Shown: positions 8,397 through 53,279, counted from the stretch's first letter. The stretch: 64,000 nt of DNA from Candidatus Aceula lacicola (GCA_030765785.1 JAVCCC010000048.1:872-64871); one strand, 5' to 3'. Notes: a model not told the origin generated them from the letters alone. Program-made: numbers and translations.

Positions 8397-8825
8397 ATGC
8401 GAAAACGAACATTAGCTCGTGAATTAGTTTTAAAAGTTCTTTATCAGGCTGATATAAGAAAAGAGCCTGTGTCTGCAATTGCCCAAAGTTTTTCTGACCT
8501 TTCCGAAATCAACGATAGTGAAATTAAAAGTTTTGCCCAAACTCTTCTCTCGGGTATCGAGATAAACTCAAAAGAAATCGACGCAAAGATTCTTAAATAT
8601 GCCTCCAATTGGGATTTGGACCGCATGGCATTTATAGATCGCAATATTTTAAGAATGGGTATTTTTGAATTGTTGTATATGCCAGATGTTCCATCAAAAG
8701 TTTCCATCAACGAAGCTATTGAGCTTGCAAAAAAATATGGCGATATTGAATCAAGTAGATTTGTAAACGGAATCTTAGATAAAGCGCACAAAACAAATCC
8801 AGTCGTGAAAGATAAGAAATCGTGA
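8397..8825 (+). CDS. nusB: Transcription antitermination factor NusB.
   Basis: 142 aa. NusB fold signature (RELVLKVLYQ..., WDLDRMAFIDRNILRMGIFEL). Conserved ribH-nusB linkage. Confidence 0.8.
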   Translation: MRKRTLARELVLKVLYQADIRKEPVSAIAQSFSDLSEINDSEIKSFAQTLLSGIEINSKEIDAKILKYASNWDLDRMAFIDRNILRMGIFELLYMPDVPSKVSINEAIELAKKYGDIESSRFVNGILDKAHKTNPVVKDKKS

Positions 8826-9646
8826 CGTTGTTTGCTGATCTTCATATACATACAAATTATTCGGATAGTAGCTTAACGCCAACGGAAGTTGTTCGAGAAT
8901 CTTTGAATGCTGGGCTAAGCTGTATTGCAATTACAGACCACGATACATTCGAAGGTGTGGCTCCTGTTAAAAGGGCGGCTGATTCAAAGAAACTAGAAAT
9001 TATTTCTGGTGTTGAGTTTTCTTCTGAGCTAGATGGACAGGATATTCATATTCTGGGATATTGTCTTGATCATGAAAATAAAGCACTTTTGAATAAAATT
9101 GATGCGATGCAGAATGCGCGAATTACTCGCATTGAGAAAATGATTGAAAAGCTAAGAGGGGTTGGTGTTGACAATATTGAATTGGGAGAAGTTTGTTCTT
9201 TGACAAAAACGAAATCGGTAGGACGCCCTCATCTAGCATTTGTGTTGAAAAAGAAAAAATGGGTAACGTCTATCAGAGAAGCATTTGATCGGTTTTTGGC
9301 TGATGGCGCTGTGGCATATGTTAAGAAATATAAGCAAACACCTCAACAGATTGTTGATCTTATTCGATCGTCAGGTGGCGTGGCTGTTTTAGCGCATCCT
9401 ATGGCTACAAATCGTGATGAGATTATTCCTGGACTTGTTAAAGGGGGGCTTCAGGGGCTGGAAGTTTATTATCCAAATTGTTCCAGATCTGTGATTGAAT
9501 ACTATGAAAATTTGGGAAAGAAATATAAATTAATTTTAACAGGCGGATCTGATGCGCATGGAGAAGGAAAAGAAAATACATTTATCGGAAAAGCAAAAGT
9601 GCCATACGAAACAGTTGAGCAATTAAAAGCACTGGCAAGCAACTGA
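8822..9646 (+). CDS. PHP-domain metal-dependent phosphoesterase, TrpH/YciV-like.
   Basis: N-terminal DLHIHTNYSDSSLTPTEVV...IAITDHDT matches the PHP His/Asp metal-binding pattern. GGSDAHGEG near the C-terminus. Confidence 0.65.
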   Translation: MTLFADLHIHTNYSDSSLTPTEVVRESLNAGLSCIAITDHDTFEGVAPVKRAADSKKLEIISGVEFSSELDGQDIHILGYCLDHENKALLNKIDAMQNARITRIEKMIEKLRGVGVDNIELGEVCSLTKTKSVGRPHLAFVLKKKKWVTSIREAFDRFLADGAVAYVKKYKQTPQQIVDLIRSSGGVAVLAHPMATNRDEIIPGLVKGGLQGLEVYYPNCSRSVIEYYENLGKKYKLILTGGSDAHGEGKENTFIGKAKVPYETVEQLKALASN

Positions 9647-10760: not shown

Positions 10761-11375
10761 TTGATGTTTTCAGGAATTGTTGAAGAAAAAGGTATTGTTC
10801 AAAAGATTGAGCGAAAAGAAAATTTAATTGTTTTATCCGTTAAAGCTAAGAAAGTTTTAAGAGGAATTAAAATCGGCGATAGCATTTCTACCGATGGCGT
10901 TTGCCTTACTGTAACGAAATTAAAAAAAGATGTTTTTACTTTTGATATCATGAAAGAAACAATGGATAAGACAACCTTGAAATATTTAGAAGTTGGGAGC
11001 AAGGTTAATCTTGAGGGTGCGCTTCGCGTTAATGATCGGCTGGGAGGCCATTTTGTATCAGGCCATATTGATGGGGTTGGGATAATTAAGAAAAGAATAT
11101 CAATGGAAAATTATGAAGAATTTCAAGTAACGATTCCTAAAAAACTTGCACGTTATTTGGCGGCTAAGGGTTCGGTTTGTATTGACGGGATTAGCTTGAC
11201 CCTTGGCGAAGTAAAGGGAAATATGTTTTCTGTTTATATTATTCCTCATACGCTCAAGGTGACAACATTGGGTTTTAAAAAAGATAAAGATAAAGTGAAT
11301 ATTGAAACAGATCTTCTGGCAAAATATATTTTGTCTGCGCGCGAACAAGATTTAATTCTTAGAAAGAGTAAATAA
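10761..11375 (+). CDS. ribE: Riboflavin synthase alpha chain.
   Basis: MFSGIVEEKG start. Two lumazine-binding repeats (GDSISTDGVCLTV and GSVCIDGISLTL). Confidence 0.8.
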   Translation: MMFSGIVEEKGIVQKIERKENLIVLSVKAKKVLRGIKIGDSISTDGVCLTVTKLKKDVFTFDIMKETMDKTTLKYLEVGSKVNLEGALRVNDRLGGHFVSGHIDGVGIIKKRISMENYEEFQVTIPKKLARYLAAKGSVCIDGISLTLGEVKGNMFSVYIIPHTLKVTTLGFKKDKDKVNIETDLLAKYILSAREQDLILRKSK

Positions 11376-11383
11376 ATTAAATA

Positions 11384-12622
11384 ATGAAAAAAAGAATTCT
11401 TATAACAGGGTTTGGCATTTTATCGAGTATCGGCAAGGGACGCCAAGAGTACTGGAAGTCTCTTAGAGAAGGAAAACCAGGCTGGGCTTCGGTGACTTTA
11501 TTTGATACTTCTGATCTTATGGTTCATCAGGCCGGAGAGGTTAAAGATTTTGATCCAAAGGTGTATATGGGTCAAAAAGGTTTACGGTCGCTTGATCGCA
11601 GCACAAAGTTATTGGTTTCTGCAGCAAAACTTGCCATTGAAGATAGTCAATTTACCATTACTGAAGAAAATACGGATGATTTAGGCGTGTCTGTTGGGAC
11701 AACTTTAGGAAGCGTTAAGAGTATTAGTGATTTTCAAGAAGTCACTTTGCGTGAAGGCCCTCGCTATACCAATCCAGCTTTATTTCCAAACACAGTTATT
11801 AATTCTCCTGCTAGCCAAGTTTCCATTTGGCACAACATTAAAGGATTTAATTCGACTATTTCAACTGGGTTTACAGCTAGTCTTGATGCAATGAAATATG
11901 CATATGATTTTATTCAGCTTGATAGGGTTAAGATGGTGTATGTAGGTGGAGTTGAGGAAATGTGTCGACAAACATTTCTTGGATTTCATGCGCTTAAGTT
12001 TTTGTCGGGATCAATAGAAAATAGTCAGTTTATTAGCTGTCCTTTTGATAAGAGAAGAAATGGTATTGTTTTTTCTGAGGGCGCGTGTTTGTTGGCGATG
12101 GAAAATTATGATCACGCGATTAAGCGTAAAGCACCTGTTTTAGGAGAAATTTTAGGATTTGGAACAAGTTTTGATCCGTATCGAATTAATAAATATAATC
12201 CAAAAGCAGAGGGATTGCAGCGTGCGATTCAGCTTGCCCTAAAAGAATCAAATCTTAAAACAACGGATATTGATTTTATTGTGTCAAATGCAAATTCAAC
12301 GCCGTCAGCCGATCGCATCGAGACTTTTGCTATTAAAGAAGTTTTTCAGGAACATGCTTATAAAATTCTTATCAGCGCGCCAAAGTCGATGACTGGTGAA
12401 TCTTTTAGTGTTTCGGGTGCACTTTCAGTGTCTGCAGCTCTATCGGTTTTTGATGATGATTCTATTTTTCCAACAATCAATTATAGGAAAAAAGATGTTG
12501 ATTGTGATTTAGATTATGTTGTGAATAAATCACGAAAAGCAAAGGTTAACAATGTTCTTGTGATTATCGCATCGCCAAGTGGAAACAATACGTGCGTGGT
12601 GTTGAGGAGGTTTATAAAATGA
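11384..12622 (+). CDS. Beta-ketoacyl-ACP synthase (FabF/FabB, thiolase-fold) family paralog in which the catalytic Cys-His-His triad appears replaced (Phe/Asn/Glu). Probably a non-catalytic KS-like protein.
   Basis: Recalled FabF motifs aligned by eye. The active-site ATACTSG context reads STGFTAS (Cys to Phe). NAHGTSTP reads SNANSTP (His to Asn). KSMTGHLLG reads KSMTGESFS (His to Glu). Overall KS-like N- and C-terminal architecture is retained. Confidence 0.65.
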   Translation: MKKRILITGFGILSSIGKGRQEYWKSLREGKPGWASVTLFDTSDLMVHQAGEVKDFDPKVYMGQKGLRSLDRSTKLLVSAAKLAIEDSQFTITEENTDDLGVSVGTTLGSVKSISDFQEVTLREGPRYTNPALFPNTVINSPASQVSIWHNIKGFNSTISTGFTASLDAMKYAYDFIQLDRVKMVYVGGVEEMCRQTFLGFHALKFLSGSIENSQFISCPFDKRRNGIVFSEGACLLAMENYDHAIKRKAPVLGEILGFGTSFDPYRINKYNPKAEGLQRAIQLALKESNLKTTDIDFIVSNANSTPSADRIETFAIKEVFQEHAYKILISAPKSMTGESFSVSGALSVSAALSVFDDDSIFPTINYRKKDVDCDLDYVVNKSRKAKVNNVLVIIASPSGNNTCVVLRRFIK

Positions 12623-13368
12623 ATTTGATAAAAGGCAAGGTTGCAATTGTAACAGGTGGTTCCAGAGGAATTGGTCGCGCAATTTGTTTAATGCTGGCTG
12701 GTCAAGGTTGTCATGTCGTATTTAATTATGCTAAAAACAAGGAAGCTGCGTCTGCGCTTGAAAAAGAGATTAAAGCGCTTGGGGTAAAAGTAAAGGCATC
12801 GCAAGTCGATATCAAAGATTTTGATAAAGTGAAGGAGTGGATTGAAAGTATTAAGAAAGAATTTGGTACGTTCCATCTCTTGATAAATAATGCAGGCATC
12901 ATCGCTGATAAAGCGTTAATGCTAATGGCGCAGGAAGACTGGCAAAACGTTATCGATACAAATTTGACAGGGGTTTTTAATATTACGCGTTGTTGTATTA
13001 CGACTTTCTTAAAACAAAAAGAGGGTAACGTTATTAATGTTTCTTCGGTTAGCGGGAAGATTGGTTTGCCAGGACAGGTTAATTATTCGGCGAGCAAAGG
13101 AGGGCTGGATGCCTTTACCAAAGCGTTAGCTAAAGAGGTGGCTGCATACAATGTGCGAGTCAATAGTGTTGCACCTGGTTTTATTGAAACAGATATTTTA
13201 AAAGAGTTTTCCTCAGAAGAGCGCGAAAAGATTAATAAGCTGATCCCAATGGGAAGGGCGGGAACGCCTGAAGACGTGGCTGGATGTGTTAAGTTTTTGT
13301 TGAGTCCAGAAGCACAATATATTATTGGAGAAAATATTCAGATGGATGGTGGATTAGCCATTCGATAA
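12619..13368 (+). CDS. fabG: 3-oxoacyl-ACP reductase (SDR). Start at MNLIKGK, preceded by a ggagg SD.
   Basis: GKVAIVTGGSRGIGRAI Rossmann motif, NNAG, catalytic S...YxxxK (YSASK). Confidence 0.8.
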   Translation: MNLIKGKVAIVTGGSRGIGRAICLMLAGQGCHVVFNYAKNKEAASALEKEIKALGVKVKASQVDIKDFDKVKEWIESIKKEFGTFHLLINNAGIIADKALMLMAQEDWQNVIDTNLTGVFNITRCCITTFLKQKEGNVINVSSVSGKIGLPGQVNYSASKGGLDAFTKALAKEVAAYNVRVNSVAPGFIETDILKEFSSEEREKINKLIPMGRAGTPEDVAGCVKFLLSPEAQYIIGENIQMDGGLAIR

Positions 13369-13380
13369 AGGAGAGGTTTT

Positions 13381-13815
13381 ATGCAATTAAATATTCAAGA
13401 AATTAAAAAAATTATTCCGCATCGATTTCCATTTTTGCTCATAGATCGTGTTGTTGATCTTGTTCCAAACGAGAAACTTGTTGCGATTAAAAACGTGACT
13501 GCCAATGAGCATTTTTTTGAAGGACATTTTCCAAATGAAAAAGTGATGCCAGGGGTCCTCATTTTGGAGGCTATGGCGCAGGCAGGATGTATTTATTTTT
13601 ATTATAGTCGCGATCTTCAAGGAAAAAATCTTTATTATTATCTTGGTAAGGCAACTGTTAAGTATTTCGCACCTGTTGTTCCGGGTGATCAGCTTAAAAT
13701 AGAGGTCACCACTATTAAGTTTTTGAAGAACACCGGGGTTGTCAAGACTCAGGCTTTTGTTGGAGAGAAGCTTGTCACCGAAGCCGAGATTGTTTTTTCA
13801 ACCAAAGAAGCTTAA
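13381..13815 (+). CDS. fabZ: 3-hydroxyacyl-ACP dehydratase FabZ.
   Basis: Hot-dog fold motifs (LPHRFPFLLIDRV, HFFEGHFPNEKVMPGVLILEAMAQ). Confidence 0.85.
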   Translation: MQLNIQEIKKIIPHRFPFLLIDRVVDLVPNEKLVAIKNVTANEHFFEGHFPNEKVMPGVLILEAMAQAGCIYFYYSRDLQGKNLYYYLGKATVKYFAPVVPGDQLKIEVTTIKFLKNTGVVKTQAFVGEKLVTEAEIVFSTKEA

Positions 13816-13913: not shown

Positions 13914-13988
13914 CGGGAAGTAGCGCAGCCTGGCTAGCGCGCAACGTTCGGGACGTTGAGGTCGTGGGTTCAAGTTCCACCTTCCCGA
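13914..13988 (+). tRNA. tRNA-Pro, anticodon CGG. No CCA is encoded.
   Basis: Manual cloverleaf fold. Acceptor cgggaag/cttcccg with C1-G72 and discriminator A73, both typical of bacterial tRNA-Pro. D-stem gcgc/gcgc. Anticodon stem caacg/cgttg with loop ttCGGga. T-arm gtggg-ttcaagt-tccac. Confidence 0.8.
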
Positions 13989-22700: not shown

Positions 22701-23138
22701 ATGTTTTATGGTGAGCATACGCATGGAATAGACCGAAAAGGTCGCCTTATTCTTCCTGCTCGTTTTCGGGATGTTGCTAAAGAAAACGGGATCGACTGTT
22801 TTTTTCTTACGCGCGGTTTAGACAAATGTGTTTTTATGTTTACGGAATACGAGTGGGCTGCTCAAGAACAAAAGTTTAAGAGCATGTCTTTTACAAAACG
22901 TGAGAGCCGTAGTTTTAATCGTATGTTTTTCTCCGGGGCTGCTGATGTTTCTCCAGATAAGCAAGGCCGATTTATCATTCCCGCATATTTAAAAGATTTT
23001 GCTCAAATTAAAAAAGACGTTATTGTTATTGGCGTTTCCAACCGTATTGAAATTTGGGATCAAAAAGTTTGGAAAGATTTTTCTAGCGAATCACAAAATT
23101 CTTTCGAACAAATCGCAGAAAATATATTGGACATTTAA
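22701..23138 (+). CDS. mraZ: Transcriptional regulator MraZ.
   Basis: 145 aa with two DxxxR-type repeats (IDRKGRLILPARFR and PDKQGRFIIPAYLK). Confidence 0.85.
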   Translation: MFYGEHTHGIDRKGRLILPARFRDVAKENGIDCFFLTRGLDKCVFMFTEYEWAAQEQKFKSMSFTKRESRSFNRMFFSGAADVSPDKQGRFIIPAYLKDFAQIKKDVIVIGVSNRIEIWDQKVWKDFSSESQNSFEQIAENILDI

Positions 23139-23140
23139 TT

Positions 23141-24052
23141 ATGGTTACCATGGCAAACGAGATTAAACACGTTCCAGTTATGATTAAAGAAATTCTTGAG
23201 CACTTGAATCTTTCAGAAGGTTCTTGTGTTTTGGACTGCACGCTTGGACTTGGAGGTCACAGTAAAGAAATTGCAAAGAAAATAGGGTCTCATGGTCTTC
23301 TGATTGGAATCGATCGAGATGAAGATTCGATCGTAAGAGCTCAGCAAAATTTAGAAGATTTTTCCGGTCGCTGTGCATTTGCTCAAAAAGATTTTAGAGA
23401 TTTAGACGCCGCGCTTGATAATTTTGGTGTTAGCCAAGTTGATGGTATTCTGTTCGATTTAGGAGTTTCTAGTCTTCAGCTTGATACGCCAGAAAGAGGA
23501 TTTAGTATTCGCGCTAATGGGCCTTTGGATATGCGCATGGATCGAAATAGTTTTATCTCGGCATATGATTTGGTTAATTCATTGTCGAGCAAAGAAATTT
23601 CTTCAATTCTGAAGAATTTTGGGGAAGAACGGTGGCATGAGCGAATCGCAGATCATCTGGTTAAGAGTCGCGTTAAGCATCCAATAGAATCAACAGAAGA
23701 GCTTAAAAATATTATTTTAAACGCAATTCCACATCGTTTTCAGGATCACCATATTCATCCGGCAACACGAACTTTTCAGGCTTTTCGTATTGCTGTTAAT
23801 CGTGAGCTAGAGGCACTTGAGATTGCTCTTAATAAAGCAATTCGATATCTGCGACCAGGGGGAACGATTTGCGTAATATCATTTCATTCGTTAGAAGATC
23901 GTATTGTTAAAGAGAAATTTAAGTATTTTGCTAAAGAGGAAATTTTAGAGATCATTACAAAAAAACCGCTTCGTCCAACGGAAGAAGAAGCAGAGTGCAA
24001 TGTTCGTTCGCGCAGTGCGCGTTTGCGTGTTGCAAGACGAATTAAGAAATAG
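23141..24052 (+). CDS. rsmH: 16S rRNA m4C1402 methyltransferase.
   Basis: HVPVM start, SAM-binding DCTLGLGGHS, FDLGVSS motif. Confidence 0.85.
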   Translation: MVTMANEIKHVPVMIKEILEHLNLSEGSCVLDCTLGLGGHSKEIAKKIGSHGLLIGIDRDEDSIVRAQQNLEDFSGRCAFAQKDFRDLDAALDNFGVSQVDGILFDLGVSSLQLDTPERGFSIRANGPLDMRMDRNSFISAYDLVNSLSSKEISSILKNFGEERWHERIADHLVKSRVKHPIESTEELKNIILNAIPHRFQDHHIHPATRTFQAFRIAVNRELEALEIALNKAIRYLRPGGTICVISFHSLEDRIVKEKFKYFAKEEILEIITKKPLRPTEEEAECNVRSRSARLRVARRIKK

Positions 24053-24063
24053 AAAAGGAAAGA

Positions 24064-24447
24064 ATGAATTTTAAGAAATTTTTAACTGCAATCGTATGCA
24101 TCACAGCTGTTGCGCTAATTTATATTCAAATGCAGGTAAAAATTTATGATCTTGCCTACCAAGGAAAACACAGAGAGAAAGAAATCTTTAAACTTATTGA
24201 TGATAGCGGTCACGTCATTTATAATATTGCTAAGTTAAAGTCATCAAGCTCATTAGGCGAAAGATTTTTGGTAAAGAATTCGGATGTCGATTTTTTAGAC
24301 TCTCGAAAAGTTGTTCATCTAAAAGTATCAACCAAGCTTGCTGCCAATAAGCTTCCGGAATGGGAATCAGTGCTCAAAAGAACAACTGGTCTTTTGGCCA
24401 GCGTCTTTTCTCTGAAGTCTGTAGCGGAAGCAAAATCAATACGATAA
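24064..24447 (+). CDS. ftsL: Small bitopic membrane protein in the FtsL position of the dcw cluster.
   Basis: 127 aa, single N-terminal TM helix, between rsmH and ftsI. Position-based call only. Confidence 0.4.
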   Translation: MNFKKFLTAIVCITAVALIYIQMQVKIYDLAYQGKHREKEIFKLIDDSGHVIYNIAKLKSSSSLGERFLVKNSDVDFLDSRKVVHLKVSTKLAANKLPEWESVLKRTTGLLASVFSLKSVAEAKSIR

Positions 24448-24467
24448 CATTAATATAATAAAAATTC

Positions 24468-26150
24468 GTGTATTTTAAAAGACACTCACTCCGATTTGTT
24501 TTTTTATTCCTTCTTTTTTTCTGCTTATTAATATTTTTTGTCGCGAAGCTTATTTTTATTCAAGTTTTTAAGTCAGACTATCTCTCAGGACTTGCTGATC
24601 GACAGCATAGCCATATTTTACGTTTAGAGCCTAAAAGAGGGACGATTTATGATCGAAAACTTCGGCCGTTAGCTTTAAATGTTACAGCGTATTCTTTGTA
24701 TGCTTCGCCACGTACTATGAGCGAGGAACAAAGAGATAAGGCTATCAAAGCTCTTCAAAAAATGTTAGGGTTGGAGGAAAGTTTTTTGAAAGATCGAATG
24801 AATCGAGATAAGAATTTTATATGGATTGCGCGCAAGTTGTCACCTGAACAGGCGGATAAGGTAAAAGCTTTAAAGATTAAAGGTTTAGATTTCATGAAGG
24901 AGAGTAGGCGCTATTATCCCGGTCAATCATTGGCGGCACATATTATTGGTTTTGCGGGTATTGATAATTATGGACTGGAAGGCCTTGAATTAGAATACAA
25001 TGAATTTCTGCGTGGACAATTTGGAATGGCGCAGATCTTGCGGGATGCCAAGCAGCGAGAACTTTTAATCCAAAAAAGTTTCTTACTTCCAAGAGATGGA
25101 TTTGATTTAGTTTTGACGATTGATGAAACGATTCAGTATTTTGCCGAACAGGCTCTGGATAAGGCTTTTAAAAAGCATCATGCAAAAGGTGCCAGCATTA
25201 TTGTGATGAATCCAAAGACGGGAGAAATTCTAGCGCTTGCGAACCGACCAACATATAATTTGAGCGACATAGGGTCAAGCGCTTTAGACAGTCGTAGAAA
25301 TCGTTCTGTAAGCGATATGTACGAGCCTGGTTCTGTTTTTAAGATTGTAACTGCTTCTGCTGCACTGGAGGAGGATGCATTCGGCGAAGATGATGAAATT
25401 TTTTGTGAAAATGGAGAATATAGAGTAGCAAATCATATTTTGCATGATCATCATGCCCAAGGGACATTAACCTTTAAGGGGGTTATTGAGCAATCAAGCA
25501 ATATTGGAACTGTTAAGGTTGCTCAAAAAATTGGGGGAAAAATTGTTAACCACTATGCGAGGCTATTTCAGTTTGGAAAAGCAACTGGTATTAATTTGCC
25601 AGGTGAAGTTCCAGGTGTTTTAAAGCCTGTCTCACGCTGGTCTGGAACTTCAATTGGGGCCGTTCCTATTGGCCACGAGGTAGGCGTGACGCCGTTGCAA
25701 CTCGTATGTGCTGTTTCCGCTATTGCTAATGGTGGTATTTATATGAAACCGTTTATTGTTCAGTATATTCGAGATCAAAAGGGAGAAGTTATTAATGGGT
25801 TCTTTCCGCAGCCAATTACGGAAGTCATTAGTCAAGAAACCGCAGAACGTGTTAAAAATATTTTGGTTGGCGTTGTAGATAATGGGACTGGTCGAAGAGC
25901 GCAGATTAAGGGTGTGAAAGTTGCTGGTAAAACAGGAACGGCTCAGAAAATTGTTAATGGTGTTTATTCGCATAGTAAATATTATGCAACATTTATTGGA
26001 TTTGCACCAGCAGACGATCCTAAGATTGCAATGGTTGTGTTTTTTGATGAGCCTCACCCTAATCATTATGGTGGAACAGTTTCAGCTCCAGTTTTTAGAG
26101 AAGTTGTAGAAAATGTGTTAAAATATTTAAGGGCAAACGACGTAAAATAA
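24468..26150 (+). CDS. ftsI: Peptidoglycan D,D-transpeptidase FtsI (class B PBP).
   Basis: N-terminal TM and dimerisation domain. Transpeptidase motifs SVFK (SxxK), SSN and KTGT (AGKTGTAQ). Confidence 0.8.
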   Translation: MYFKRHSLRFVFLFLLFFCLLIFFVAKLIFIQVFKSDYLSGLADRQHSHILRLEPKRGTIYDRKLRPLALNVTAYSLYASPRTMSEEQRDKAIKALQKMLGLEESFLKDRMNRDKNFIWIARKLSPEQADKVKALKIKGLDFMKESRRYYPGQSLAAHIIGFAGIDNYGLEGLELEYNEFLRGQFGMAQILRDAKQRELLIQKSFLLPRDGFDLVLTIDETIQYFAEQALDKAFKKHHAKGASIIVMNPKTGEILALANRPTYNLSDIGSSALDSRRNRSVSDMYEPGSVFKIVTASAALEEDAFGEDDEIFCENGEYRVANHILHDHHAQGTLTFKGVIEQSSNIGTVKVAQKIGGKIVNHYARLFQFGKATGINLPGEVPGVLKPVSRWSGTSIGAVPIGHEVGVTPLQLVCAVSAIANGGIYMKPFIVQYIRDQKGEVINGFFPQPITEVISQETAERVKNILVGVVDNGTGRRAQIKGVKVAGKTGTAQKIVNGVYSHSKYYATFIGFAPADDPKIAMVVFFDEPHPNHYGGTVSAPVFREVVENVLKYLRANDVK

Positions 26151-26161
26151 GGGAAGAAAAA

Positions 26162-27616
26162 GTGAAGCTAAAGGATTTGATTAAGGATATTTACCAAAAA
26201 GAGATTGAGGATCGTTTTTTGATTTACGATGTTCAGTCTGTTTCATGCGATTCTCGAACTGTTAAACAGGGAGGGCTTTTTGTTGCGATTAAGGGAGTTC
26301 GACAGGATGGCATCGACTATGTTGATGAGGCTATTGCAAGAGGTGCAATTGTTGTTGCTGTTGACAACAATCAATTTATGGATATTTTGAATAAGAATAT
26401 TTGTGTTCTGAAGGTCGATGATACGAGACGGTTTTTAGCCGATACGGCAAAGCGAATTTATGATTTTCCATCAGAAAAAGTGCAGTGCTTCGGAATCACT
26501 GGCACAAACGGAAAAACAACAATTTCATATTTGATTGAATCAATTTTTAAGACCGCTGGGCAAAGATGCGGTGTTATTGGGACAGTTAATTGTCGGTATG
26601 GTGAGCATGTTGTTCCCATTGAAAACACAACGCCTAACATCGTCGATATTTGTCGCTATTTAATGGATATGAGTAAAAATGGGTTTTCGCATTGCGCGAT
26701 GGAAGTTTCTTCTCATGCGCTTGATCAAGGTAGAGTTTTTGGCGTTGATTTTAAGGTGGGTATCTTTACAAATTTGACACAAGATCATCTTGATTATCAC
26801 CATAGCATGGAAAGCTATTTTTTAGCAAAATCAAAACTTTTTTCTTCTCTTTCAGCTGATTCTTTTGCCATTGTTAATGTAGATGATTTTTGGGGTCAGA
26901 AAATAATTGAGCGAACAGATGCTAAAATCATTTCTTATGGAATTCACAACAAGGCTGATGTGATGGCTTTGAATATTGAGCCAACATTGGTTGGGTCGAG
27001 ATTTGTATTAAAATTAGGCAAAGATGAGGCAGAACTTGAAACTACGCTTATTGGAGAGCATAATATTTATAATATTTTAGCTGCCGCAGCGACTAGCTAT
27101 TATGCGGGTGTTAAATTTGAAGATATTCAAGCAGGAATTGAATATTTTAATCATGTTCCAGGAAGACTTGAGCCTGTTATAAGGGGGCAGGATTTTTTTG
27201 CCTTTGTAGATTATGCACACACAGAGGATGCTTTAAAGAATGTTTTAAAAAGCCTTCGAGTGGTTAGTCAAGGAAAGCTGATTGTTGTTTTTGGTTGTGG
27301 CGGTGATCGCGATAAGACGAAAAGGGTCAAAATGGGAAGCACTGTAAGCGCGTTGGCGGATTTTGCAATTATTACAAACGATAATCCTCGTAGCGAGAAT
27401 CCGGATGATATTGCGCATAAGATTGCATCAGGTTTTGAGCATGATCGATATCAAATTATTTTGGATCGTCGCCAAGCGATTCAAAAAGCATTTTCTATGG
27501 CTGAGAAAAATGATGTCGTTTTGATAGCCGGTAAAGGGCATGAAAATTATCAAATTTTAAAGCATAAAACAATTCGTTTTGATGATCGACAAGTTGCCAG
27601 GGAGTGCTTGTCATGA
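26162..27616 (+). CDS. murE: UDP-N-acetylmuramoyl-L-alanyl-D-glutamate--2,6-diaminopimelate (or lysine) ligase.
   Basis: Mur ligase P-loop GITGTNGKTT and C-terminal DNPR motif (TNDNPRSE). Confidence 0.85.
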   Translation: MKLKDLIKDIYQKEIEDRFLIYDVQSVSCDSRTVKQGGLFVAIKGVRQDGIDYVDEAIARGAIVVAVDNNQFMDILNKNICVLKVDDTRRFLADTAKRIYDFPSEKVQCFGITGTNGKTTISYLIESIFKTAGQRCGVIGTVNCRYGEHVVPIENTTPNIVDICRYLMDMSKNGFSHCAMEVSSHALDQGRVFGVDFKVGIFTNLTQDHLDYHHSMESYFLAKSKLFSSLSADSFAIVNVDDFWGQKIIERTDAKIISYGIHNKADVMALNIEPTLVGSRFVLKLGKDEAELETTLIGEHNIYNILAAAATSYYAGVKFEDIQAGIEYFNHVPGRLEPVIRGQDFFAFVDYAHTEDALKNVLKSLRVVSQGKLIVVFGCGGDRDKTKRVKMGSTVSALADFAIITNDNPRSENPDDIAHKIASGFEHDRYQIILDRRQAIQKAFSMAEKNDVVLIAGKGHENYQILKHKTIRFDDRQVARECLS

Positions 27617-28962
27617 TGAATGTCAAAGAGATTATCGAAGCAACAGGCGGACATTTTTTATATGGAGATCCGAATAAGAAAATTAGCGGTGTCTCTATCG
27701 ATTCTAGGACGATTCGTCCGAGAAATCTTTTTATTGCGCTGAAAGGGAAGAGATATGATGGGCATAGGTTTTTATTATCTGCAGTTCAAAAAAAGGCGAG
27801 TGTTGTCCTAGTTTCCCAGAGACCAAAAAAGCATATTTTAAACGTTTCGATTATTGTCGTTGAAGATACAGCCCGCGCCTTAGAAGATTTGGCTCAATTT
27901 TACCGATCAAGATTTTCTATTCCAATCATTGCAATCACAGGAAGCTCTGGAAAAACAACAACCAAAGAGCTGATTGCGTCTGTTCTGTCAAAGAAATTTA
28001 ATATATTGAAAAGTTTATCGACGGAAAATAATTTTATTGGAGTCTCTAAAACATTGTTAAAACTTAAGCCTAAGCATGATATCGCAATCTTAGAGTTTGG
28101 GACAAATCATTTTGGCGAGATTGAAAATCTTGCCCGCATTGCACATCCTACTATTTCCGTTTTAACAAATATTGGAGAATCGCACCTCGCGTTTTTAAAG
28201 ACACCGGCTGGTGTCTTTAGAGAGAAGAAGGCAATTTATAAGAATTTAAATAAGAATGGAATTGTTGTTTTTAATAATGATGATTTTTTTCTAAAGAAAA
28301 TTAGTTTAGAACGCAGCAAGGCAAGAAAAGTTTCTTTTTCAATTCAAAGACGATCGAGCTGTCAGGCGAAGAGCGTGAAGCGAACAGAAAAAGGAATAGA
28401 GTTTTCTATAGGATCGAAAAAAATCTTTATCAAGGCATTTTCCTCTTCTTATGTTTACAATGCTTTGTGCGCAATTGTTGTTGGTCGATTATTTAAGATT
28501 CCATCAAAAGAAATAAAAGAATGTATTGCGCGTAATCGTTTACCAAAGCAACGGCAACATTGTTATCGAACGAAAAAGAAATTTTGGATAATCGATGATA
28601 CGTATAATGCAAATCCGTTGTCTGTGAAGTCTGCCATTGAATCGCTTGCCTGCTTTTCTGCGAAAGGAAAGCGTGTTTTTGTTTTTGGTGACATGAATGA
28701 GCTTGGCCTAAAAGCAAAAGCGGCTCATGAATCGGTTGGGCGACAAGTCGCCAAAAGCAACATTGATTGCTTTGTCACTGTTGGAAAGAGGGCAAAACTT
28801 GCGAGCAATTCCATAAAGAATAAAAAGATTATAAAAGCAAACTTTTTATCCTGTAGTCCTGCCAGTAAATTTCTAAAAACACTGATTGCTCCTGATGATG
28901 TTGTTTTAATTAAAGGGTCTCGTAGTGTGCGTATGGAAGAAATTGTCCGGAAAATCGGATGA
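27604..28962 (+). CDS. murF: UDP-MurNAc-tripeptide--D-alanyl-D-alanine ligase.
   Basis: Mur ligase P-loop ITGSSGKTTTKE; position between murE and mraY. Confidence 0.8.
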   Translation: MLVMMNVKEIIEATGGHFLYGDPNKKISGVSIDSRTIRPRNLFIALKGKRYDGHRFLLSAVQKKASVVLVSQRPKKHILNVSIIVVEDTARALEDLAQFYRSRFSIPIIAITGSSGKTTTKELIASVLSKKFNILKSLSTENNFIGVSKTLLKLKPKHDIAILEFGTNHFGEIENLARIAHPTISVLTNIGESHLAFLKTPAGVFREKKAIYKNLNKNGIVVFNNDDFFLKKISLERSKARKVSFSIQRRSSCQAKSVKRTEKGIEFSIGSKKIFIKAFSSSYVYNALCAIVVGRLFKIPSKEIKECIARNRLPKQRQHCYRTKKKFWIIDDTYNANPLSVKSAIESLACFSAKGKRVFVFGDMNELGLKAKAAHESVGRQVAKSNIDCFVTVGKRAKLASNSIKNKKIIKANFLSCSPASKFLKTLIAPDDVVLIKGSRSVRMEEIVRKIG

Positions 28963-29039
28963 TTAAATCCTAAGTAAATTCTTTTATTTTCTTTCCGTTA
29001 CTATATAATAGGATTAATATTCTTACTAAAGGAGTTGCT

Positions 29040-30125
29040 ATGCTTTATTTCTTGTCTACCTTCCGCGATGCTTTTTCTGGGCTTAACATTTTTCGCTATA
29101 TCACTTTCCGCGCTGGTGCAGCTGCATTTACTTCGTTTTTGCTGTGCATTATTATTGGACCGCTTGTTATACGAAAACTTAAAAACGATAAAATTAGAGA
29201 GGATGCGGGCCGTGAACATTGTGATAAGCTTTCTGAGATTCAGAAGCATAAGCAAGGTACTCCGACCATGGGAGGCATTTTTATTATTGGCAGCATCTTA
29301 ATTTCTGTTTTACTTTGGTCTGATTTAAGCAGCCCGTATGTGCTTATAACAATTTTAACGTGTATTTGGTTGGCTATTCTCGGATTTGTGGATGATCATT
29401 TAAAGGTTGTACAGGGCAATCAGAAAGGTCTTCATGCGCGAACAAAATTAATCTGGCAATCGCTTTTAGGATGTCTCGTTGGTTATTTTATTTTCTGGCA
29501 TCCTGAAATTTCGACTAAGCTCGACATTCCTTTTTTCAAACTGTCTGTTTTGAATTTGGGTATTTTCTATATTCCATTTGCAATTTTAATTATTGTTGGA
29601 AGTTCAAATGCTGTCAATTTAACTGATGGGCTTGATGGCCTTGCGATTGGTTGCGTTTTGATTGTTGCTATGGGATTGGGTTCTCTTTCGTATATATCGG
29701 GACATTTTAAGTTTGCAGAATATTTATTTTTACCATATATCCAAGGGGGTGGAGAGCTTTCAGTTTTTTGCGCTGCTATTTTAGGGGCAAGCTTAGGATT
29801 TTTGTGGTTTAATTGTTATCCGGCGTCTATTTTTATGGGCGATACGGGATCTTTGGCTCTTGGCGGAACCTTGGGGATAATTGCTATTTTAATTAAGAAA
29901 GAATTACTTCTTGTTATCTTAGGCGGCATTTTTGTCATGGAAGCATTATCAGTTATTCTGCAAGTCGGATCCGTTAAGCTGAGAAAGAAAAGGATGTTTA
30001 AAATAGCTCCGTTTCATCATCATTTGCAATTTTTGGGATGGAGTGAATCAAAAATTATTATACGATTTTGGATTATTGCAGTTATCTTAGCACTTTTAAC
30101 ATTAACGACGCTTAAGATTAGGTAG
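29040..30125 (+). CDS. mraY: Phospho-N-acetylmuramoyl-pentapeptide transferase.
   Basis: Polytopic; MraY motifs (KQGTPTMGG, NAVNLTDGLDGLA, MGDTGSLALGG). Confidence 0.9.
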   Translation: MLYFLSTFRDAFSGLNIFRYITFRAGAAAFTSFLLCIIIGPLVIRKLKNDKIREDAGREHCDKLSEIQKHKQGTPTMGGIFIIGSILISVLLWSDLSSPYVLITILTCIWLAILGFVDDHLKVVQGNQKGLHARTKLIWQSLLGCLVGYFIFWHPEISTKLDIPFFKLSVLNLGIFYIPFAILIIVGSSNAVNLTDGLDGLAIGCVLIVAMGLGSLSYISGHFKFAEYLFLPYIQGGGELSVFCAAILGASLGFLWFNCYPASIFMGDTGSLALGGTLGIIAILIKKELLLVILGGIFVMEALSVILQVGSVKLRKKRMFKIAPFHHHLQFLGWSESKIIIRFWIIAVILALLTLTTLKIR

Positions 30126-30129
30126 TCTT

Positions 30130-31392
30130 GTGGACGTAAGAAATAAAAAAGTAACAATTATTGGGTTTGGCCGTAGTGGGTCTGCAATTGCAGATTTGGT
30201 TCTGCAATTAGGGGGAGTCGTTCAGATTTCAGACTCGGCCCCAAAAGAAAAAGTTCAAGAAATGATTGCGCAGACAAATCTTGAAAGCAATATTTGTCTG
30301 GAATCAGATCATCATACCGAAGAATTTATTAAAAATAGTGATTTTGTTGTTCTTAGCCCTGGAGTTCGATTTGATTCTCAGGTTGTTGCGTGGGCAATGG
30401 AGGCAAAGATTCCTTGTTTTAGCGAGATTGAGTTTGCCTGGATGTTTTGTAAGAATTCAATTGTCGCCGTGACAGGGAGTAACGGAAAAACAACTGTTTC
30501 TACTTTGATTAGCCAAATTCTTGAGAGTGCTGGCAAAAAAACATGCCTATGCGGCAACATTGGTTCTCCATTTACAAAGCATGTTCTTAACCTCACTAGT
30601 GATCAAGTTGTCGTTCTTGAAGTAAGCTCATTTCAGCTTGAGTCAATTGAAAGGTTTCGTGCGCATGTCGCTATTTTTCTGAATTGTACACAAAATCATC
30701 TGGATCGTCATAAAGATATGGATGATTATTTTTTAGCAAAATCAAAGATTTTTTTGAATCAGGATGAAAAAGATTATGCTATTGTTAATTTTAATGATGA
30801 TCGAACAAAAGGCATCGCTTCAAAGATTAAGGCAAAAATTGTCTATTTTAATGATCCTCAACAATTGAAGAAATTTCCAGACGAAAATCTAAATTTTCTT
30901 GCGGCTCGATGTGTCTGTCATGTTTTTGGCGTTTCGGATGAAATCATAGATGGTGTGTTAAAAAAGTTCAAGGGTGTAGAGCATCGCCTAGAATGGGTTC
31001 GATCTATTGATGATATCGATTTTATTAATGATTCAAAGGCAACAACAGCTGAAGCTGGACGCTGGGCTCTGGAAAGAGCGGAAAAGCCGGTTGTTATGAT
31101 TTGTGGTGGTCGGGACAAGAATATTGATTTTACAGTTTTGCGGGATCTTATAAAGGCAAAAGTAAAAGAGATGGTGGTTATTGGTGAGTCGAGGGATAAG
31201 ATTAGAGATGCTTTTTCTGATGTTGTGGATGTTGAGCTAGAAGATTCTCTAGAGGGTGCTGTCTTAAAAGCAAAGGAATTCTCGCAACAAGGTGATTGTG
31301 TTTTATTTTCACCGATGTGCACAAGTTTTGATATGTTTTTAAATTTTGAAGAACGGGGAAAAGTTTTTAAGGAAATTGTTGAGAGTTTATAA
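30130..31392 (+). CDS. murD: UDP-N-acetylmuramoylalanine--D-glutamate ligase.
   Basis: N-terminal Rossmann (VTIIGFGRSG), Mur P-loop VTGSNGKTT. Confidence 0.85.
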   Translation: MDVRNKKVTIIGFGRSGSAIADLVLQLGGVVQISDSAPKEKVQEMIAQTNLESNICLESDHHTEEFIKNSDFVVLSPGVRFDSQVVAWAMEAKIPCFSEIEFAWMFCKNSIVAVTGSNGKTTVSTLISQILESAGKKTCLCGNIGSPFTKHVLNLTSDQVVVLEVSSFQLESIERFRAHVAIFLNCTQNHLDRHKDMDDYFLAKSKIFLNQDEKDYAIVNFNDDRTKGIASKIKAKIVYFNDPQQLKKFPDENLNFLAARCVCHVFGVSDEIIDGVLKKFKGVEHRLEWVRSIDDIDFINDSKATTAEAGRWALERAEKPVVMICGGRDKNIDFTVLRDLIKAKVKEMVVIGESRDKIRDAFSDVVDVELEDSLEGAVLKAKEFSQQGDCVLFSPMCTSFDMFLNFEERGKVFKEIVESL

Positions 31393-32484
31393 ATGCGAGA
31401 TTTAAGAATATCAATTGCAATTATTGTTACGGTGCTTCTTAGCGTGGGCGTTATAATGATTTTTAGTTCAAGCGGAATTTATGCGCTACAAGAATTAGGC
31501 TCGAGCACATATTTTTTGCAGCGGCATTTAGTTTATTTATGTGTAGGATTTATTCTTATGGCGCTTGTCATGGCTATGGATTATCGCTTGCTTTCGCAGT
31601 ATTCGAAACCAATCTTGATACTTTCAATTGTGACACTTGTTCTTGTCTTGATTCCAGGAATTGGAAAAGAAGTTTATGGAGCCCGGCGTTGGTTTCGATT
31701 TCTTGGTTTTGGATTTCAGCCTTCTGAGTTTGTAAAATTGGCGGTCGTAATTTATATGGCAGATTTCTTGGCTCGCAAACAAAATCGAATTAAGAGTTTT
31801 TTCTTTGGTTTTATCCCCGTGTTGTGTGTCTTAGGCGTTGTTTCTTTGCTCATTTTAAAGCAACCGGATCTTGGAACAACGGTATTAATTGCTATAGTTG
31901 TTTTCATAATGCTTTTTATTGCAGGAACGCGGATTGGATATTTGGCGAGCATTGTTTTTTTAAGCTTGCCTGCAGCATACTACTTAATCGCACTTGTTCC
32001 TTATCGGTTAAGACGCATCCAAGCGTTCTTAGATCCATGGAGCGATAAACAGGGCGCAGGTTTTCAACTTGTTCAATCTCAGATTGCTTTAGGCTCTGGG
32101 GGGATTTTTGGAATTGGGCTTGGAAAAAGTATGCAAAAATTGTTTTACCTTCCGGCAGCACATACAGATTTCATTTTATCCATTATCGGTGAAGAGCTTG
32201 GGCTTTTGGGGACAACAGCAATCGTTTTTCTTTTTGCTTTATTTGTTTGGCAAGGAGCAAGAATTGCTAAAAGAACGGAAGATCCATTTGGATACTTTCT
32301 GGCTATTGGGATTGTCGCTATGATTGGTTTGCAGGCGATTGTGAATATTGGTGTTAGCATCGGCGCTTTTCCGACGAAGGGTTTGCCGCTGCCGTTTATT
32401 AGCTATGGAGGCTCTGCGCTAATCATGCAAATGGTTTGCGTTGGAATTTTGCTTAATATTTCTAGAATACAAGATTTATTATAG
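31393..32484 (+). CDS. ftsW: SEDS-family peptidoglycan glycosyltransferase FtsW.
   Basis: 10-TM SEDS protein with conserved QPSEF and GSGG motifs; position between murD and murG. Confidence 0.85.
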   Translation: MRDLRISIAIIVTVLLSVGVIMIFSSSGIYALQELGSSTYFLQRHLVYLCVGFILMALVMAMDYRLLSQYSKPILILSIVTLVLVLIPGIGKEVYGARRWFRFLGFGFQPSEFVKLAVVIYMADFLARKQNRIKSFFFGFIPVLCVLGVVSLLILKQPDLGTTVLIAIVVFIMLFIAGTRIGYLASIVFLSLPAAYYLIALVPYRLRRIQAFLDPWSDKQGAGFQLVQSQIALGSGGIFGIGLGKSMQKLFYLPAAHTDFILSIIGEELGLLGTTAIVFLFALFVWQGARIAKRTEDPFGYFLAIGIVAMIGLQAIVNIGVSIGAFPTKGLPLPFISYGGSALIMQMVCVGILLNISRIQDLL

Positions 32485-32497
32485 AAAAAGGATGTTT

Positions 32498-33562
32498 ATG
32501 AAGATTATCATTGCAGCAGGAGGAACAGGAGGGCATGTGTTTCCTGCTGTTTCGGTTGCCAGAGAGCTAGTTAAACAAAACCAAGTTATTTTTTTCACAA
32601 CGGATGGGATTGCTTTTCAAATCATTAAGGATTCTGGGTTTGAGCCTTGGGCTGTATGCCAGAGAGGAATGTCGTCTGGAAATATTGTGATGTTTGCAAT
32701 AAGGATGATTCAAGCTATACGAGAATGCCTTTGCATTATTCTAAAAGTGTCACCTGATGCTGTTGTTGGCTTTGGCGGGTATCCGGCTTTTCCTATCGTC
32801 TTTTCTGCTTGGCTTTCAAGAATTCCCGTGTTGATTCACGAGCAGAACATTGTCCCTGGTAAGGCAAATCAGATGGCCGGTATGTTTGCAAATAGAATTG
32901 CAGTCAGCTTCCAAGAGACTAAGAAATACTTTTCTGATCAAAAATGTGTTTTAACGGGATGTCCATCTCGATTTCGTGACATAGAGAAACCAGCAGAGGA
33001 AGATTTTAGAAAGTTTGGTTTTAAACAAGAGAAGGTAACAATTTTGGTTTTTGGCGGAAGTCAGGCTAGCCAAAGAATTAATAGTATTTTTTCGGATGCA
33101 GCGGTTCTTCTGAAGGGAAACTTTAATTTTCAATTTATTCATCTTTCTGGAAAGGGTGATTATTATGCGTTGTATAAGAAGTATTTGAATAATAAATTGA
33201 ATTTTAAACTGTTTGATTTTCTGCAGGATATTGCACCGGCTTATCGCGTTGCTGATTTGGTTATCGCTCGTTCAGGAGCATCGACAATTTCGGAATTGAT
33301 TGTTTTTAAAAAGCCTTCAATTCTTATTCCTTATCCATCTGAGAAAGTGCACCAAAAAGAAAATGCTTTGGTTCTTTCAGCGGCAGGTGTCGCTACGATC
33401 ATCGAGGAGGCAAACCTTTCGGCATCACGTTTACACAACGAAATTATATCTTTTTTTAGAAAGAAAAGGTCACAGGCAAATTTTATGAAAAGTATGCAGC
33501 AGCTTCAAATGCCAGATTCAGAAAAGAAGTTGTCTCGAGAGATCGGTAAGCTAAAGAAATGA
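32498..33562 (+). CDS. murG: UDP-GlcNAc:lipid I GlcNAc transferase MurG. Start placed at MKIIIAAGG, which has a proper SD spacing.
   Basis: GT28 N-terminus IAAGGTGGHVFPA and C-terminal GGSQAS motif. Confidence 0.85.
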   Translation: MKIIIAAGGTGGHVFPAVSVARELVKQNQVIFFTTDGIAFQIIKDSGFEPWAVCQRGMSSGNIVMFAIRMIQAIRECLCIILKVSPDAVVGFGGYPAFPIVFSAWLSRIPVLIHEQNIVPGKANQMAGMFANRIAVSFQETKKYFSDQKCVLTGCPSRFRDIEKPAEEDFRKFGFKQEKVTILVFGGSQASQRINSIFSDAAVLLKGNFNFQFIHLSGKGDYYALYKKYLNNKLNFKLFDFLQDIAPAYRVADLVIARSGASTISELIVFKKPSILIPYPSEKVHQKENALVLSAAGVATIIEEANLSASRLHNEIISFFRKKRSQANFMKSMQQLQMPDSEKKLSREIGKLKK

Positions 33563-34332
33563 AGCGAATCACATATCTGTTACTTATAATTTTGTTTTTT
33601 GGTGTCATGCCGATATCGTCGGCATCTAATGAGTGGAATGATTTAAAGAGTCGTCATTTTATTATTTATTATAAAAATGCGCCTCGCGAATTTATTAAAA
33701 CGGTCGAGCAGTCCGCAGAGGATTATTATTTTGATATTGTTGACGAGCTCGGTTTCACACGTGATCAGATTTGGACATGGGACGAGCGTGTAAAGATTTA
33801 TATTTACGACAATCAGCAAGACTATCTCACATTAGCTCGACAAGCTAGCTGGTCTGCCGGATCAACAATGCTGGGATCAAAAGTGATTCGAACATTTCCT
33901 TCGGCGCACGGATTTTTTGACTCTTTATTGCCGCATGAATTAGGGCATATTATTTTTAGAGATTATGTTGGTTTTGAATCCAATATCCCGCTTTGGTTTG
34001 ACGAGGGTGTTGCGATGTATCAGGAAAAGGCAAAGCGTTGGGGAGCAAATCAGGAGGTTAAATCTGCTATTCAGGATAAAAGTTTTTGTAGTTTATCCGA
34101 TTTAAGGCTAACACGAAAATCATCTCAAAGTGATGTAAATTTGTTTTATGCAGAATCAGCCAGCGTCGTGTATTATTTAATTTCTGAATTTGGAAGCTTT
34201 AAATTCTTAAATTTTTGTCGTAATTTAAAAAAAGGTTTATCATTTAACCGAGCACTTAAGAAGTCATATTATCGCTTTGAAAATGTTAATGACTTGAATA
34301 AAACATGGGTTGGTTATTTAAAAAATGAATAA
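33559..34332 (+). CDS. Secreted putative zinc metallopeptidase (HExxH...E, Peptidase_MA-like) embedded in the dcw cluster.
   Basis: Signal peptide MKRITYLLLIILFFGVMPISSASNEW. HELGH with a downstream Glu in WFDEGVAMY, the gluzincin arrangement. Confidence 0.5.
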   Translation: MKRITYLLLIILFFGVMPISSASNEWNDLKSRHFIIYYKNAPREFIKTVEQSAEDYYFDIVDELGFTRDQIWTWDERVKIYIYDNQQDYLTLARQASWSAGSTMLGSKVIRTFPSAHGFFDSLLPHELGHIIFRDYVGFESNIPLWFDEGVAMYQEKAKRWGANQEVKSAIQDKSFCSLSDLRLTRKSSQSDVNLFYAESASVVYYLISEFGSFKFLNFCRNLKKGLSFNRALKKSYYRFENVNDLNKTWVGYLKNE

Positions 34333-35683: not shown

Positions 35684-35693
35684 GAGAAGAATT

Positions 35694-50085: not shown

Positions 50086-50111
50086 AAGATTATTTTAAAA
50101 GGAGTTGTATT

Positions 50112-50501
50112 ATGGGAAACGAAGAAGAATATTTGTATACAAAAGATCACGAATGGGTGTGTTTCGAAGATTCAATCGCATTTGTTGGTGTTGCTGATTA
50201 TGCGCAGAATGCTTTAGGAGATATTACATTCATCGAGTTTCCAGAGATCGGAGCGGAAGTTGAGCAGTTTGAACAGTTCGCTTCGGTTGAATCGGTTAAG
50301 GCTGCAAGCGATATTTTTTCTCCCATTTCAGGAAAAATTATTGAGGCGAATCAAGACTTGGCGTCAGCACCAGAGCTGATTAACAAATCTTGTTATGAAA
50401 AAGGGTGGATTTCAAAAATTGACCCATCTGATCTTGATGAAAAAGATAACCTGATGACATTCGAAGATTACAGTAAGTTTTTAGAAGGGCTAGATACTTG
50501 A
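50112..50501 (+). CDS. gcvH: Glycine cleavage system H protein.
   Basis: 129 aa. Lipoyl-lysine motif ESVKAASD. YTKDHEW start. Confidence 0.85.
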   Translation: MGNEEEYLYTKDHEWVCFEDSIAFVGVADYAQNALGDITFIEFPEIGAEVEQFEQFASVESVKAASDIFSPISGKIIEANQDLASAPELINKSCYEKGWISKIDPSDLDEKDNLMTFEDYSKFLEGLDT

Positions 50502-53277: not shown

Positions 53278-53279
53278 AA

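Follow-up and report, generated by a model that had tools for sequence, protein, structure and literature searches.

A predicted pseudo-ketosynthase encoded with fabG and fabZ in Candidatus Omnitrophota, a candidate chain-length-factor-like subunit

We analyzed a 64,000-nucleotide stretch of DNA from Candidatus Aceula lacicola (GCA_030765785.1 JAVCCC010000048.1:872-64871; hereafter, the window), focusing on a gene that encodes a pseudo-ketosynthase (pKS), i.e., a protein with the fold of the β-ketoacyl-acyl carrier protein (ACP) synthase FabF that lacks the catalytic residues of this enzyme. We propose, at a probability of roughly 60%, that pKS is the noncatalytic, chain-length-factor (CLF)-like subunit of a heterodimeric β-ketoacyl-ACP synthase, the active half of which is encoded in trans. 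A preliminary description of the window had suggested a pseudo-enzyme in the spirit of chain-length factors, acting as a noncatalytic partner. This suggestion is supported by the kinship of pKS with the anammox protein amxFabFmut (44% identity; 80% bootstrap), by a sister clade encoded in cis with an intact ketosynthase (KS) and an ACP, and by strong purifying selection on pKS.

Catalytic residues and selection

The gene and the codons discussed below are as follows.

11384..12622, + strand: pKS (pseudo-ketosynthase, "clade W"), 412 aa, FabF fold, member of the amxFabFmut (KS/CLF-like) family
11783..11797, + strand: codons of F134-P-N-T137-V138, inside the NPxxFPNTVxNxPAS loop (equivalent to Phe135/Thr138/Val139 of amxFabFmut)
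11870..11872, + strand: Phe163 codon TTT, in place of the nucleophilic Cys (alignment and family counts)
12287..12289, + strand: Asn302 codon AAT, in place of the first catalytic His (same change in Brocadia amxFabFmut)
12398..12400, + strand: Glu339 codon GAA, in place of the second catalytic His (same change in amxFabFmut)

The Pfam matches of pKS (PF00109, 1.2e-32; PF02801, 1e-21) span the full length of the protein, as expected from the KS/thiolase-fold, FabF-like architecture that had been described for it, and the motifs TISTGFTASLDAM, DFIVSNANSTPSAD, and APKSMTGESFSVSG are all present. In a MAFFT alignment with Escherichia coli FabF, C163 corresponds to F163 of pKS, H303 to N302, T305 to N304, and H340 to E339; K335 is retained as K334, and the gate residue F400 is replaced by P398. 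As a cross-check of this mapping, pKS was aligned by HMMER with Listeria FabF (3o04) and with chain B of 9s5h; in both cases, the Cys again falls on F and the two His residues on N and E. The earlier reading of the nucleophilic Cys as Phe, the first catalytic His as Asn, and the second as Glu is thus borne out by both methods. The possibility, raised at the same time, that a proper alignment might restore an intact Cys/His/His triad was checked with MAFFT and HMMER, and the triad is absent.

Canonical FabF (KAS II) resembles pKS in fold, length, and Pfam architecture but is only 31 to 35% identical to it. The protein has neither the Cys-His-His triad nor a score above the equivalog cutoff: it reaches 350.3 bits against the NCBIfam fabF model TIGR03150 (cutoff, 493.75) and 330 bits against NF005589 (cutoff, 387). 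The structure prediction and comparison with FabF that had been proposed as a check gave an AlphaFold2 (AF2) monomer with a mean predicted local distance difference test (pLDDT) score of 87.5, low only at residues ~110 to 140. The structures nearest to this model in a Foldseek search are FabFs, with that of Bacillus subtilis first (template modeling [TM] score, 0.95). Judged from its sequence, pKS is a catalytically dead FabF-fold protein that has kept the active-site Lys: it would not be acylatable, because of the Cys-to-Phe change, and would be unable to decarboxylate malonyl-ACP, because of the His-to-Asn and His-to-Glu changes.

Homologs of pKS form more than 120 clusters at 61 to 90% identity among the matches listed in a protein cluster search; the open reading frame (ORF) is intact in these, and every cluster with a named organism belongs to Candidatus Omnitrophota. 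F163, Asn304, K334, and E339 occur in 121/121 family members, Pro398 in 120/121, and N302 in 115/121, the remaining six carrying Asp, Thr, or Ser; D310 and E313 are also invariant. The dN/dS ratio of pKS against three orthologs is 0.07 to 0.09, equal to that of the adjacent ribE, and pKS is under strong purifying selection; selection on the downstream fabG and fabZ is stronger still (dN/dS, 0.02). The loss of all three catalytic residues could have pointed to a recently inactivated FabF pseudogene or relic, an outcome already considered in the preliminary description. The probability of such a relic is vanishingly small given the intact ORFs in all relatives examined, the fixed substitutions, the low dN/dS ratio, and the synteny kept among relatives, and we rejected a decaying pseudogene on these grounds.

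Kinship with anammox and clade L pseudo-ketosynthases

In sequence comparisons, the closest characterized relative of pKS is amxFabFmut (KustE3606/Broful02170; PDB 9s5h and 9s5i, chain C). The best match of pKS among solved structures is this chain, from B. fulgida (E = 4.6e-115; residues 2 to 410, gap-free), while catalytic KSs reach ~1e-76 at best in the same search. We assigned 9s5h to the preprint protein discussed below because its chains match the proteins described there; the PDB code is absent from the main text of the preprint. Identities are 44 to 46% to amxFabFmut proteins versus 31 to 36% to catalytic KSs, and a second anammox ortholog aligns with no gaps at 44% identity (numbering offset, +1). 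The two proteins share length, the FabF fold, the His-to-Asn and His-to-Glu changes, the retained Lys, identical tunnel-lining Phe/Thr/Val residues and the FPNTV motif (F134/T137/V138 in pKS), and B. subtilis FabF as the nearest catalytic structural neighbor. They differ at the Cys position (Val/Ile/Thr in the anammox proteins; Phe in pKS), in the host (Brocadiales versus the phylum Omnitrophota), and in gene context: amxFabFmut adjoins the genes for its active partner amxFabF2, amxACP, a phytoene-desaturase-like protein, and a B12-radical-SAM protein, whereas pKS adjoins fabG and fabZ, all three at the tail of a riboflavin operon.

The anammox protein was characterized by the Barends laboratory in a preprint of May 2026. 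Its authors describe the first KS/CLF heterodimer of a fatty-acid-like pathway and regard it as peculiar to the anammox bacteria that make ladderanes (bioRxiv 10.64898/2026.05.19.726425). In that study, the intact amxFabF2 and the triad-less amxFabFmut, both from anammox "Cluster I," were each inactive alone; together, they copurified, decarboxylated malonyl-ACP, formed acetoacetyl-ACP, and crystallized as a heterodimer, analogous to the KS/chain-length-factor pairs of polyketide synthesis (bioRxiv 10.64898/2026.05.19.726425). Phe135, Thr138, and Val139 of amxFabFmut line the acyl tunnel of the active subunit, and mutating Val139, or Phe135 together with Val139, alters which chain lengths the heterodimer prefers; amxFabFmut's helix-loop-helix motif was ordered only in the heterodimer (bioRxiv 10.64898/2026.05.19.726425). 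The low-confidence segment of the AF2 model of pKS (residues ~110 to 140) is this same motif. No stretch of the family is more conserved than the NPxxFPNTVxNxPAS loop, which does not vary across Omnitrophota and anammox sequences, and F134, T137, and V138 are invariant in 37 window-type sequences as well as across clade W, clade L (described below), and the anammox proteins.

By analogy, we infer that a heterodimer forms in this organism, what its active partner is and where that partner is encoded, and that pKS has a role in chain length. pKS would pair with an intact amxFabF2-like KS (or FabF) from another locus and would stabilize or activate it. The helix-loop-helix loop of pKS (F134, T137, and V138) would form part of the wall of the partner's acyl tunnel and may thereby set which chain lengths the partner extends; the cotranslated FabG and FabZ would then process the β-ketoacyl-ACP products.

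Scanning metagenomes with a combined alignment, we recovered a 52%-identical relative of pKS in an operon of the order pKS-fabG-ACP-intact KS (L034), the KS of which is 55% identical to amxFabF2. Homologs of this KS form a large family in which, among the matches listed, nearly all named members are Omnitrophota and one is Candidatus Taylorbacteria. The latter (P0392; 3.3-kb contig), which is closer to the L034 KS than any other listed homolog, is labeled Candidatus Taylorbacteria (Patescibacteria), a label that is probably a binning error or possibly reflects transfer. All eight sampled loci with an intact amxFabF2-like KS on Omnitrophota-type contigs carry, in cis, an ACP and a pseudo-KS of a distinct clade, which we call clade L. 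The clusters lie at the following positions.

L113:6235-14727 and L115:6210-13182: FabZ-pKS-reductase-FabG-ACP-KS-CrtI-like oxidase-nitroreductase
L114:6641-12690, L116:6636-13259, and L118:6648-12662: pKS-reductase-FabG-ACP-KS-CrtI-like oxidase-nitroreductase, without FabZ
[quoted passage not shown]
L119:7037-15357: pKS-FabG-ACP-FabZ-KS, i.e., the window gene order with ACP and KS inserted
L034:7153-10711: pKS-fabG-ACP-intact KS

Their contents also include an HTH_17 regulator and one or more CrtI/phytoene-desaturase-like oxidases, and the gene that varies among them encodes a homolog of thioester reductases or acyl-ACP reductases. Wherever the locus is long enough, the cluster is followed by genes for an HD-domain protein, two response regulators, and a GAF histidine kinase; L034 is excepted, since its contig diverges after the KS. 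Gene-by-gene comparison with anammox Cluster I gave identities of 44 to 49% for ACP, 46% for FabZ, 55 to 57% for KS, 47 to 50% for the pseudo-KS, and 34 to 40% for the desaturase homolog, and the B12-radical-SAM gene was absent from the clade L clusters in this comparison. The reductase gene, an ACP that scores under the AcpP cutoffs, and a KS that passes only a FabF subfamily model suggest that these clusters encode a specialized reducing type II pathway, the product of which is possibly an unsaturated fatty aldehyde or alcohol.

The clade L pseudo-KSs are 52 to 59% identical to those of clade W, and the FabG proteins of the two clades show a parallel divergence (52% identity). Both clades have Phe at the Cys position, Asn at the T305 position, the retained Lys, Pro at the gate, and an adjoining fabG. 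They differ at the two His positions, which in clade L are Ser/Thr/Cys and Asp, respectively (F-[S/T/C]-N-T-K-D-x-P, compared with F-N-N-T-K-E-x-P in clade W), and in that only the clade L genes have an ACP gene and that of an intact amxFabF2-like KS in cis. In a neighbor-joining tree (i.e., a distance method only), bootstrap values were 98% for clade W, 100% for clade L, 84% for W plus L, 80% for W plus L plus amxFabFmut, and 99% for all pseudo-KSs. The simplest reading of these comparisons is that the pKS-fabG-fabZ trio of the window may be a relocated fragment of a clade-L-type cluster.

Two other groups of KS paralogs were compared. The "noncanonical FabB" of Kuenenia, Kuste2805, has the published active site Phe163/Asn298/Asn300/Lys328/Glu333 (Rattray et al. 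2009, Table 2; PMC2649909); these published residues equal F163/N302/N304/K334/E339 of pKS. It differs from pKS at the Thr302 position (Cys rather than Thr), at the gate (Phe rather than Pro), and in its context, next to the intact FabF Kuste2804 in a cluster (kuste2802-2805) with AcpS and B12-radical-SAM genes. In the type II polyketide KSα/CLF pairs (actinorhodin, 1TQY; ishigamide Iga11/Iga12, 6KXD-F; aryl-polyene ApeO/ApeC), the acyl tunnel is shaped by a catalytically inactive KS paralog, which forms a pair with an active KS. Homology of pKS to these proteins is detectable (1tqy_B, E = 3.2e-38; 6kxd_A, E = 1.8e-53), but the similarity is far lower, their subunits are encoded side by side, and their context is a polyketide rather than a FabG/FabZ type. 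Aromatic CLFs carry Gln at the Cys position. With Phe163, no adjoining KS, and FAS-type neighbors, pKS does not have the features of a type II polyketide CLF.

The locus and the candidate partner

The neighbors of pKS form a compact unit.

10761..11375, + strand: ribE (riboflavin synthase), its end 8 bp upstream of the start of pKS; conserved upstream neighbor
12619..13368, + strand: fabG (3-oxoacyl-ACP reductase, 249 aa); NF009466, 260 bits (cutoff, 222); TIGR01830, 294 versus 297.75
13381..13815, + strand: fabZ (3-hydroxyacyl-ACP dehydratase, 144 aa); NF000582, 166 bits (cutoff, 113); TIGR01750, 161 bits (cutoff, 155)
13914..13988, + strand: tRNA-Pro (CGG), at the downstream end of the pKS-fabG-fabZ unit

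The ATG of fabG overlaps the TGA of pKS (ATGA), and 12 bp separate fabG from fabZ. These spacings support the cotranscription of pKS with fabG and fabZ that had been suggested earlier, and pKS is predicted to be translationally coupled to fabG. Since ribE is a conserved upstream neighbor, the trio is appended to the rib operon. The order ribBA-ribH-nusB-PHP-ribD-ribE-pKS-fabG-fabZ-acylphosphatase-phosphoesterase-ligA is kept down to 66% identity, and the exact pKS protein recurs in many metagenomes on contigs of up to 430 kb with the same neighbors from PHP through phosphoesterase. The PHP-domain phosphoesterase gene (8822-9646) lies within the rib operon between nusB and ribD, a placement kept in all of the related Omnitrophota loci (L001, L003, and L005). 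The window FabZ is 39% identical to amxFabZ and scores about equally against ordinary FabZ structures; we therefore rejected the idea that it is distinctly amxFabZ-like.

We found no second KS, ACP, FabH, or FabD in the 64-kb window using tblastn with E. coli and amxACP-like queries and Pfam searches of the remaining ORFs, in agreement with the preliminary description, in which acpP, fabD, fabH, and an intact fabF had been noted as missing nearby. The first ACP search, with E. coli AcpP, was too insensitive (it missed even the anammox amxACP in L007), and the ACP scan was therefore redone with six amxACP-like queries, which gave no match in the window or in window-type loci. No homolog of amxACP, amxFabF2, the phytoene desaturase, or the B12-radical-SAM protein was found in the window, where only the canonical-looking FabZ is present; by gene co-occurrence, the window does not belong to anammox Cluster I (putative ladderane). 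The genes that flank L-type clusters were also looked for in the window and were not found, and the flanks of the W and L loci do not overlap. An adjoining active-KS gene and a dedicated ACP accompany the pseudo-KS in clade L and in anammox bacteria but not in the window.

Searches for the partner among protein sequences gave mixed results. With a reconstructed amxFabF2, only anammox proteins were among the 120 matches listed; a search of 50% representatives with amxFabF2 was dominated by multi-KS polyketide synthases and ~800-aa double-KS fusions. Many of these natural fusions (within P0241-P0385, outside the window) start with an intact amxFabF2-like KS (C-H-T-K-H-F) and end with a KS domain that lacks the triad and whose "active-site" residues vary widely (e.g., YNNKE, WSNKE, VFNKEF, and LGNKEP); they are single-chain KS-CLF units. 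Since their C-terminal halves are only ~30% identical to pKS, they represent other lineages, and we rejected them as Rosetta-stone evidence. P0334 (535 aa) and P0326 (570 aa) are intact amxFabF2-like KSs with 120- to 160-residue N-terminal extensions; P0334 is the intact KS most similar to pKS (39%).

Several observations weigh against a heterodimer with a partner encoded in trans. An intact KS or ACP was found neither in the 64-kb window nor in the 10 kb on either side of 15 window-type loci, and among the 120 members listed for each family, of many, the GenBank/protein accession blocks of the window-type pKS and amxFabF2-like KS families did not coincide; among these listed members, no genome with a window-type locus was found to carry an amxFabF2-like KS. 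The pocket residues N302, N304, E339, K334, D310, and E313 are conserved beyond the needs of mere filler. The low pLDDT at residues 110 to 140 may just reflect prediction as a monomer, and amxFabFmut of S. brodae can crystallize as a homodimer (bioRxiv 10.64898/2026.05.19.726425). We nevertheless infer that a KS must exist somewhere in the window-type genomes, because FabG and FabZ are under strong selection and need 3-ketoacyl-ACP substrates.

The lack of a partner gene in cis (0/15 window-type loci), the restriction of the conserved operon partners to fabG and fabZ, and the homodimeric S. brodae crystals would also fit a stand-alone, noncatalytic homodimer without a KS partner, i.e., an acyl-ACP-binding, sequestering, or scaffolding protein that organizes FabG and FabZ. 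We consider this unlikely, since conservation in pKS is highest in the loop that, within the heterodimer, lines the tunnel of the partner and since the sister clade and the anammox orthologs always adjoin an intact KS. The conservation of the pocket can alternatively be read as a sign of neofunctionalization, in which the Phe/Asn/Asn/Lys/Glu pocket would catalyze another reaction on an ACP substrate (hydrolysis, isomerization, or noncanonical decarboxylation). A "defunct tunnel" pocket does persist in amxFabFmut, with polyethylene glycol bound there in the crystal (bioRxiv 10.64898/2026.05.19.726425), and Rattray et al. first proposed another substrate or function for such paralogs (PMC2649909). 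However, no nucleophile takes the place of the Cys, both decarboxylation histidines are gone, and the anammox homolog is inactive alone. Because clade L varies at both His positions (S/T/C at the first and Asp at the second), a structural constraint fits better than a catalytic one, and a new enzymatic activity seems decidedly improbable.

Within the preferred reading, i.e., a heterodimer with a KS encoded elsewhere, the partner is possibly the housekeeping FabF, so that the heterodimer would serve primary fatty acid synthesis, although we hold this variant only tentatively. It would suit the position of the locus in a core housekeeping region (rib operon, ligA, and the division/cell-wall [dcw] cluster), the scores of FabZ above the equivalog cutoffs and of FabG above that of NF009466 and just under that of TIGR01830, and the placement of the related L117 cluster after rpmF-plsX-fabH-fabD. 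The related clusters argue against it in that their ACP scores under the AcpP cutoffs, their KS passes only a FabF subfamily model, and they carry thioester/acyl-ACP-reductase and CrtI-like genes typical of specialized pathways.

Elsewhere in the window, GC skew is strongly positive from 1 to 64000 (the cumulative rise is monotonic), nearly all genes are on the + strand, and the GC content is ~37%; the skew and the strand bias are consistent with a single leading-strand replichore segment. The division/cell-wall cluster (22701-38654) has the order mraZ-rsmH-ftsI-murE-murF-mraY-murD-ftsW-murG-(peptidase MA)-murC-ddl-ftsQ-ftsA, and an NAD-dependent epimerase gene (38657-39628) comes after ftsA, at the position of ftsZ in the cluster. 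A 610-aa ORF (42488-44320) amid glycosyltransferase and sugar-modification genes and a 236-aa ORF (59331-60041) between an AAA ATPase and a secretin have no Pfam match. A glycine-cleavage operon (gcvT, gcvH, gcvP1, and gcvP2) is followed directly by an LplA/LipB-family lipoate/octanoate-protein ligase gene (48991-53999). Lipoylation draws on octanoyl-ACP, and the anammox heterodimer favors about C8; a tie to the pKS system would be pure speculation.

Novelty and implications

Pseudo-KSs of the KS/CLF-like kind were already known, having been noted in 2009 and structurally characterized in 2026. antiSMASH "ladderane" calls in metagenome-assembled genomes of Omnitrophota are mentioned in passing in the literature; two Omnitrophota genome papers contained nothing on lipid synthesis, and no description of the clade L pseudo-KS clusters was found in the literature searched. 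Relative to that literature, four points appear new: the pseudo-KS family is a conserved fixture of the Omnitrophota; it falls into two clades; the Cluster I core minus the radical-SAM enzyme recurs in this phylum; and, in the lineage of the window, a dead subunit unlinked from any KS is joined to the rib operon with fabG and fabZ. The separation of the dead subunit from any active KS in the window lineage is unusual for KS/CLF systems.

Annotation pipelines name pKS only a "beta-ketoacyl-ACP synthase family protein," with no sign of inactivity; reconstructions of the metabolism of these uncultured nanobacteria may therefore credit them with too great a capacity for fatty acid synthesis. A second phylum, the Omnitrophota, harbors the pseudo-KS family in abundance, with strict conservation and purifying selection, and supplies nonanammox proteins for its study. 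Since the Omnitrophota clusters match Cluster I except for the B12-radical-SAM gene, fewer genes can be ladderane-specific.

KS/chain-length-factor heterodimers have long been regarded as a polyketide feature. A broader proposal, which we regard as doubtful, is that, in this Omnitrophota lineage, the elongating KS of the main fatty acid pathway is an obligate heterodimer of an active KS and a dead paralog encoded at separate loci, with a shared Cluster I core as its corollary. If this is true, chain-length-factor-type control would belong to housekeeping lipid synthesis rather than being a specialty, and nonladderane Omnitrophota would share with the "ladderane" Cluster I its ACP/FabZ/KS/pseudo-KS/desaturase core, so that the step specific to ladderanes would be that of the B12-radical-SAM enzyme.

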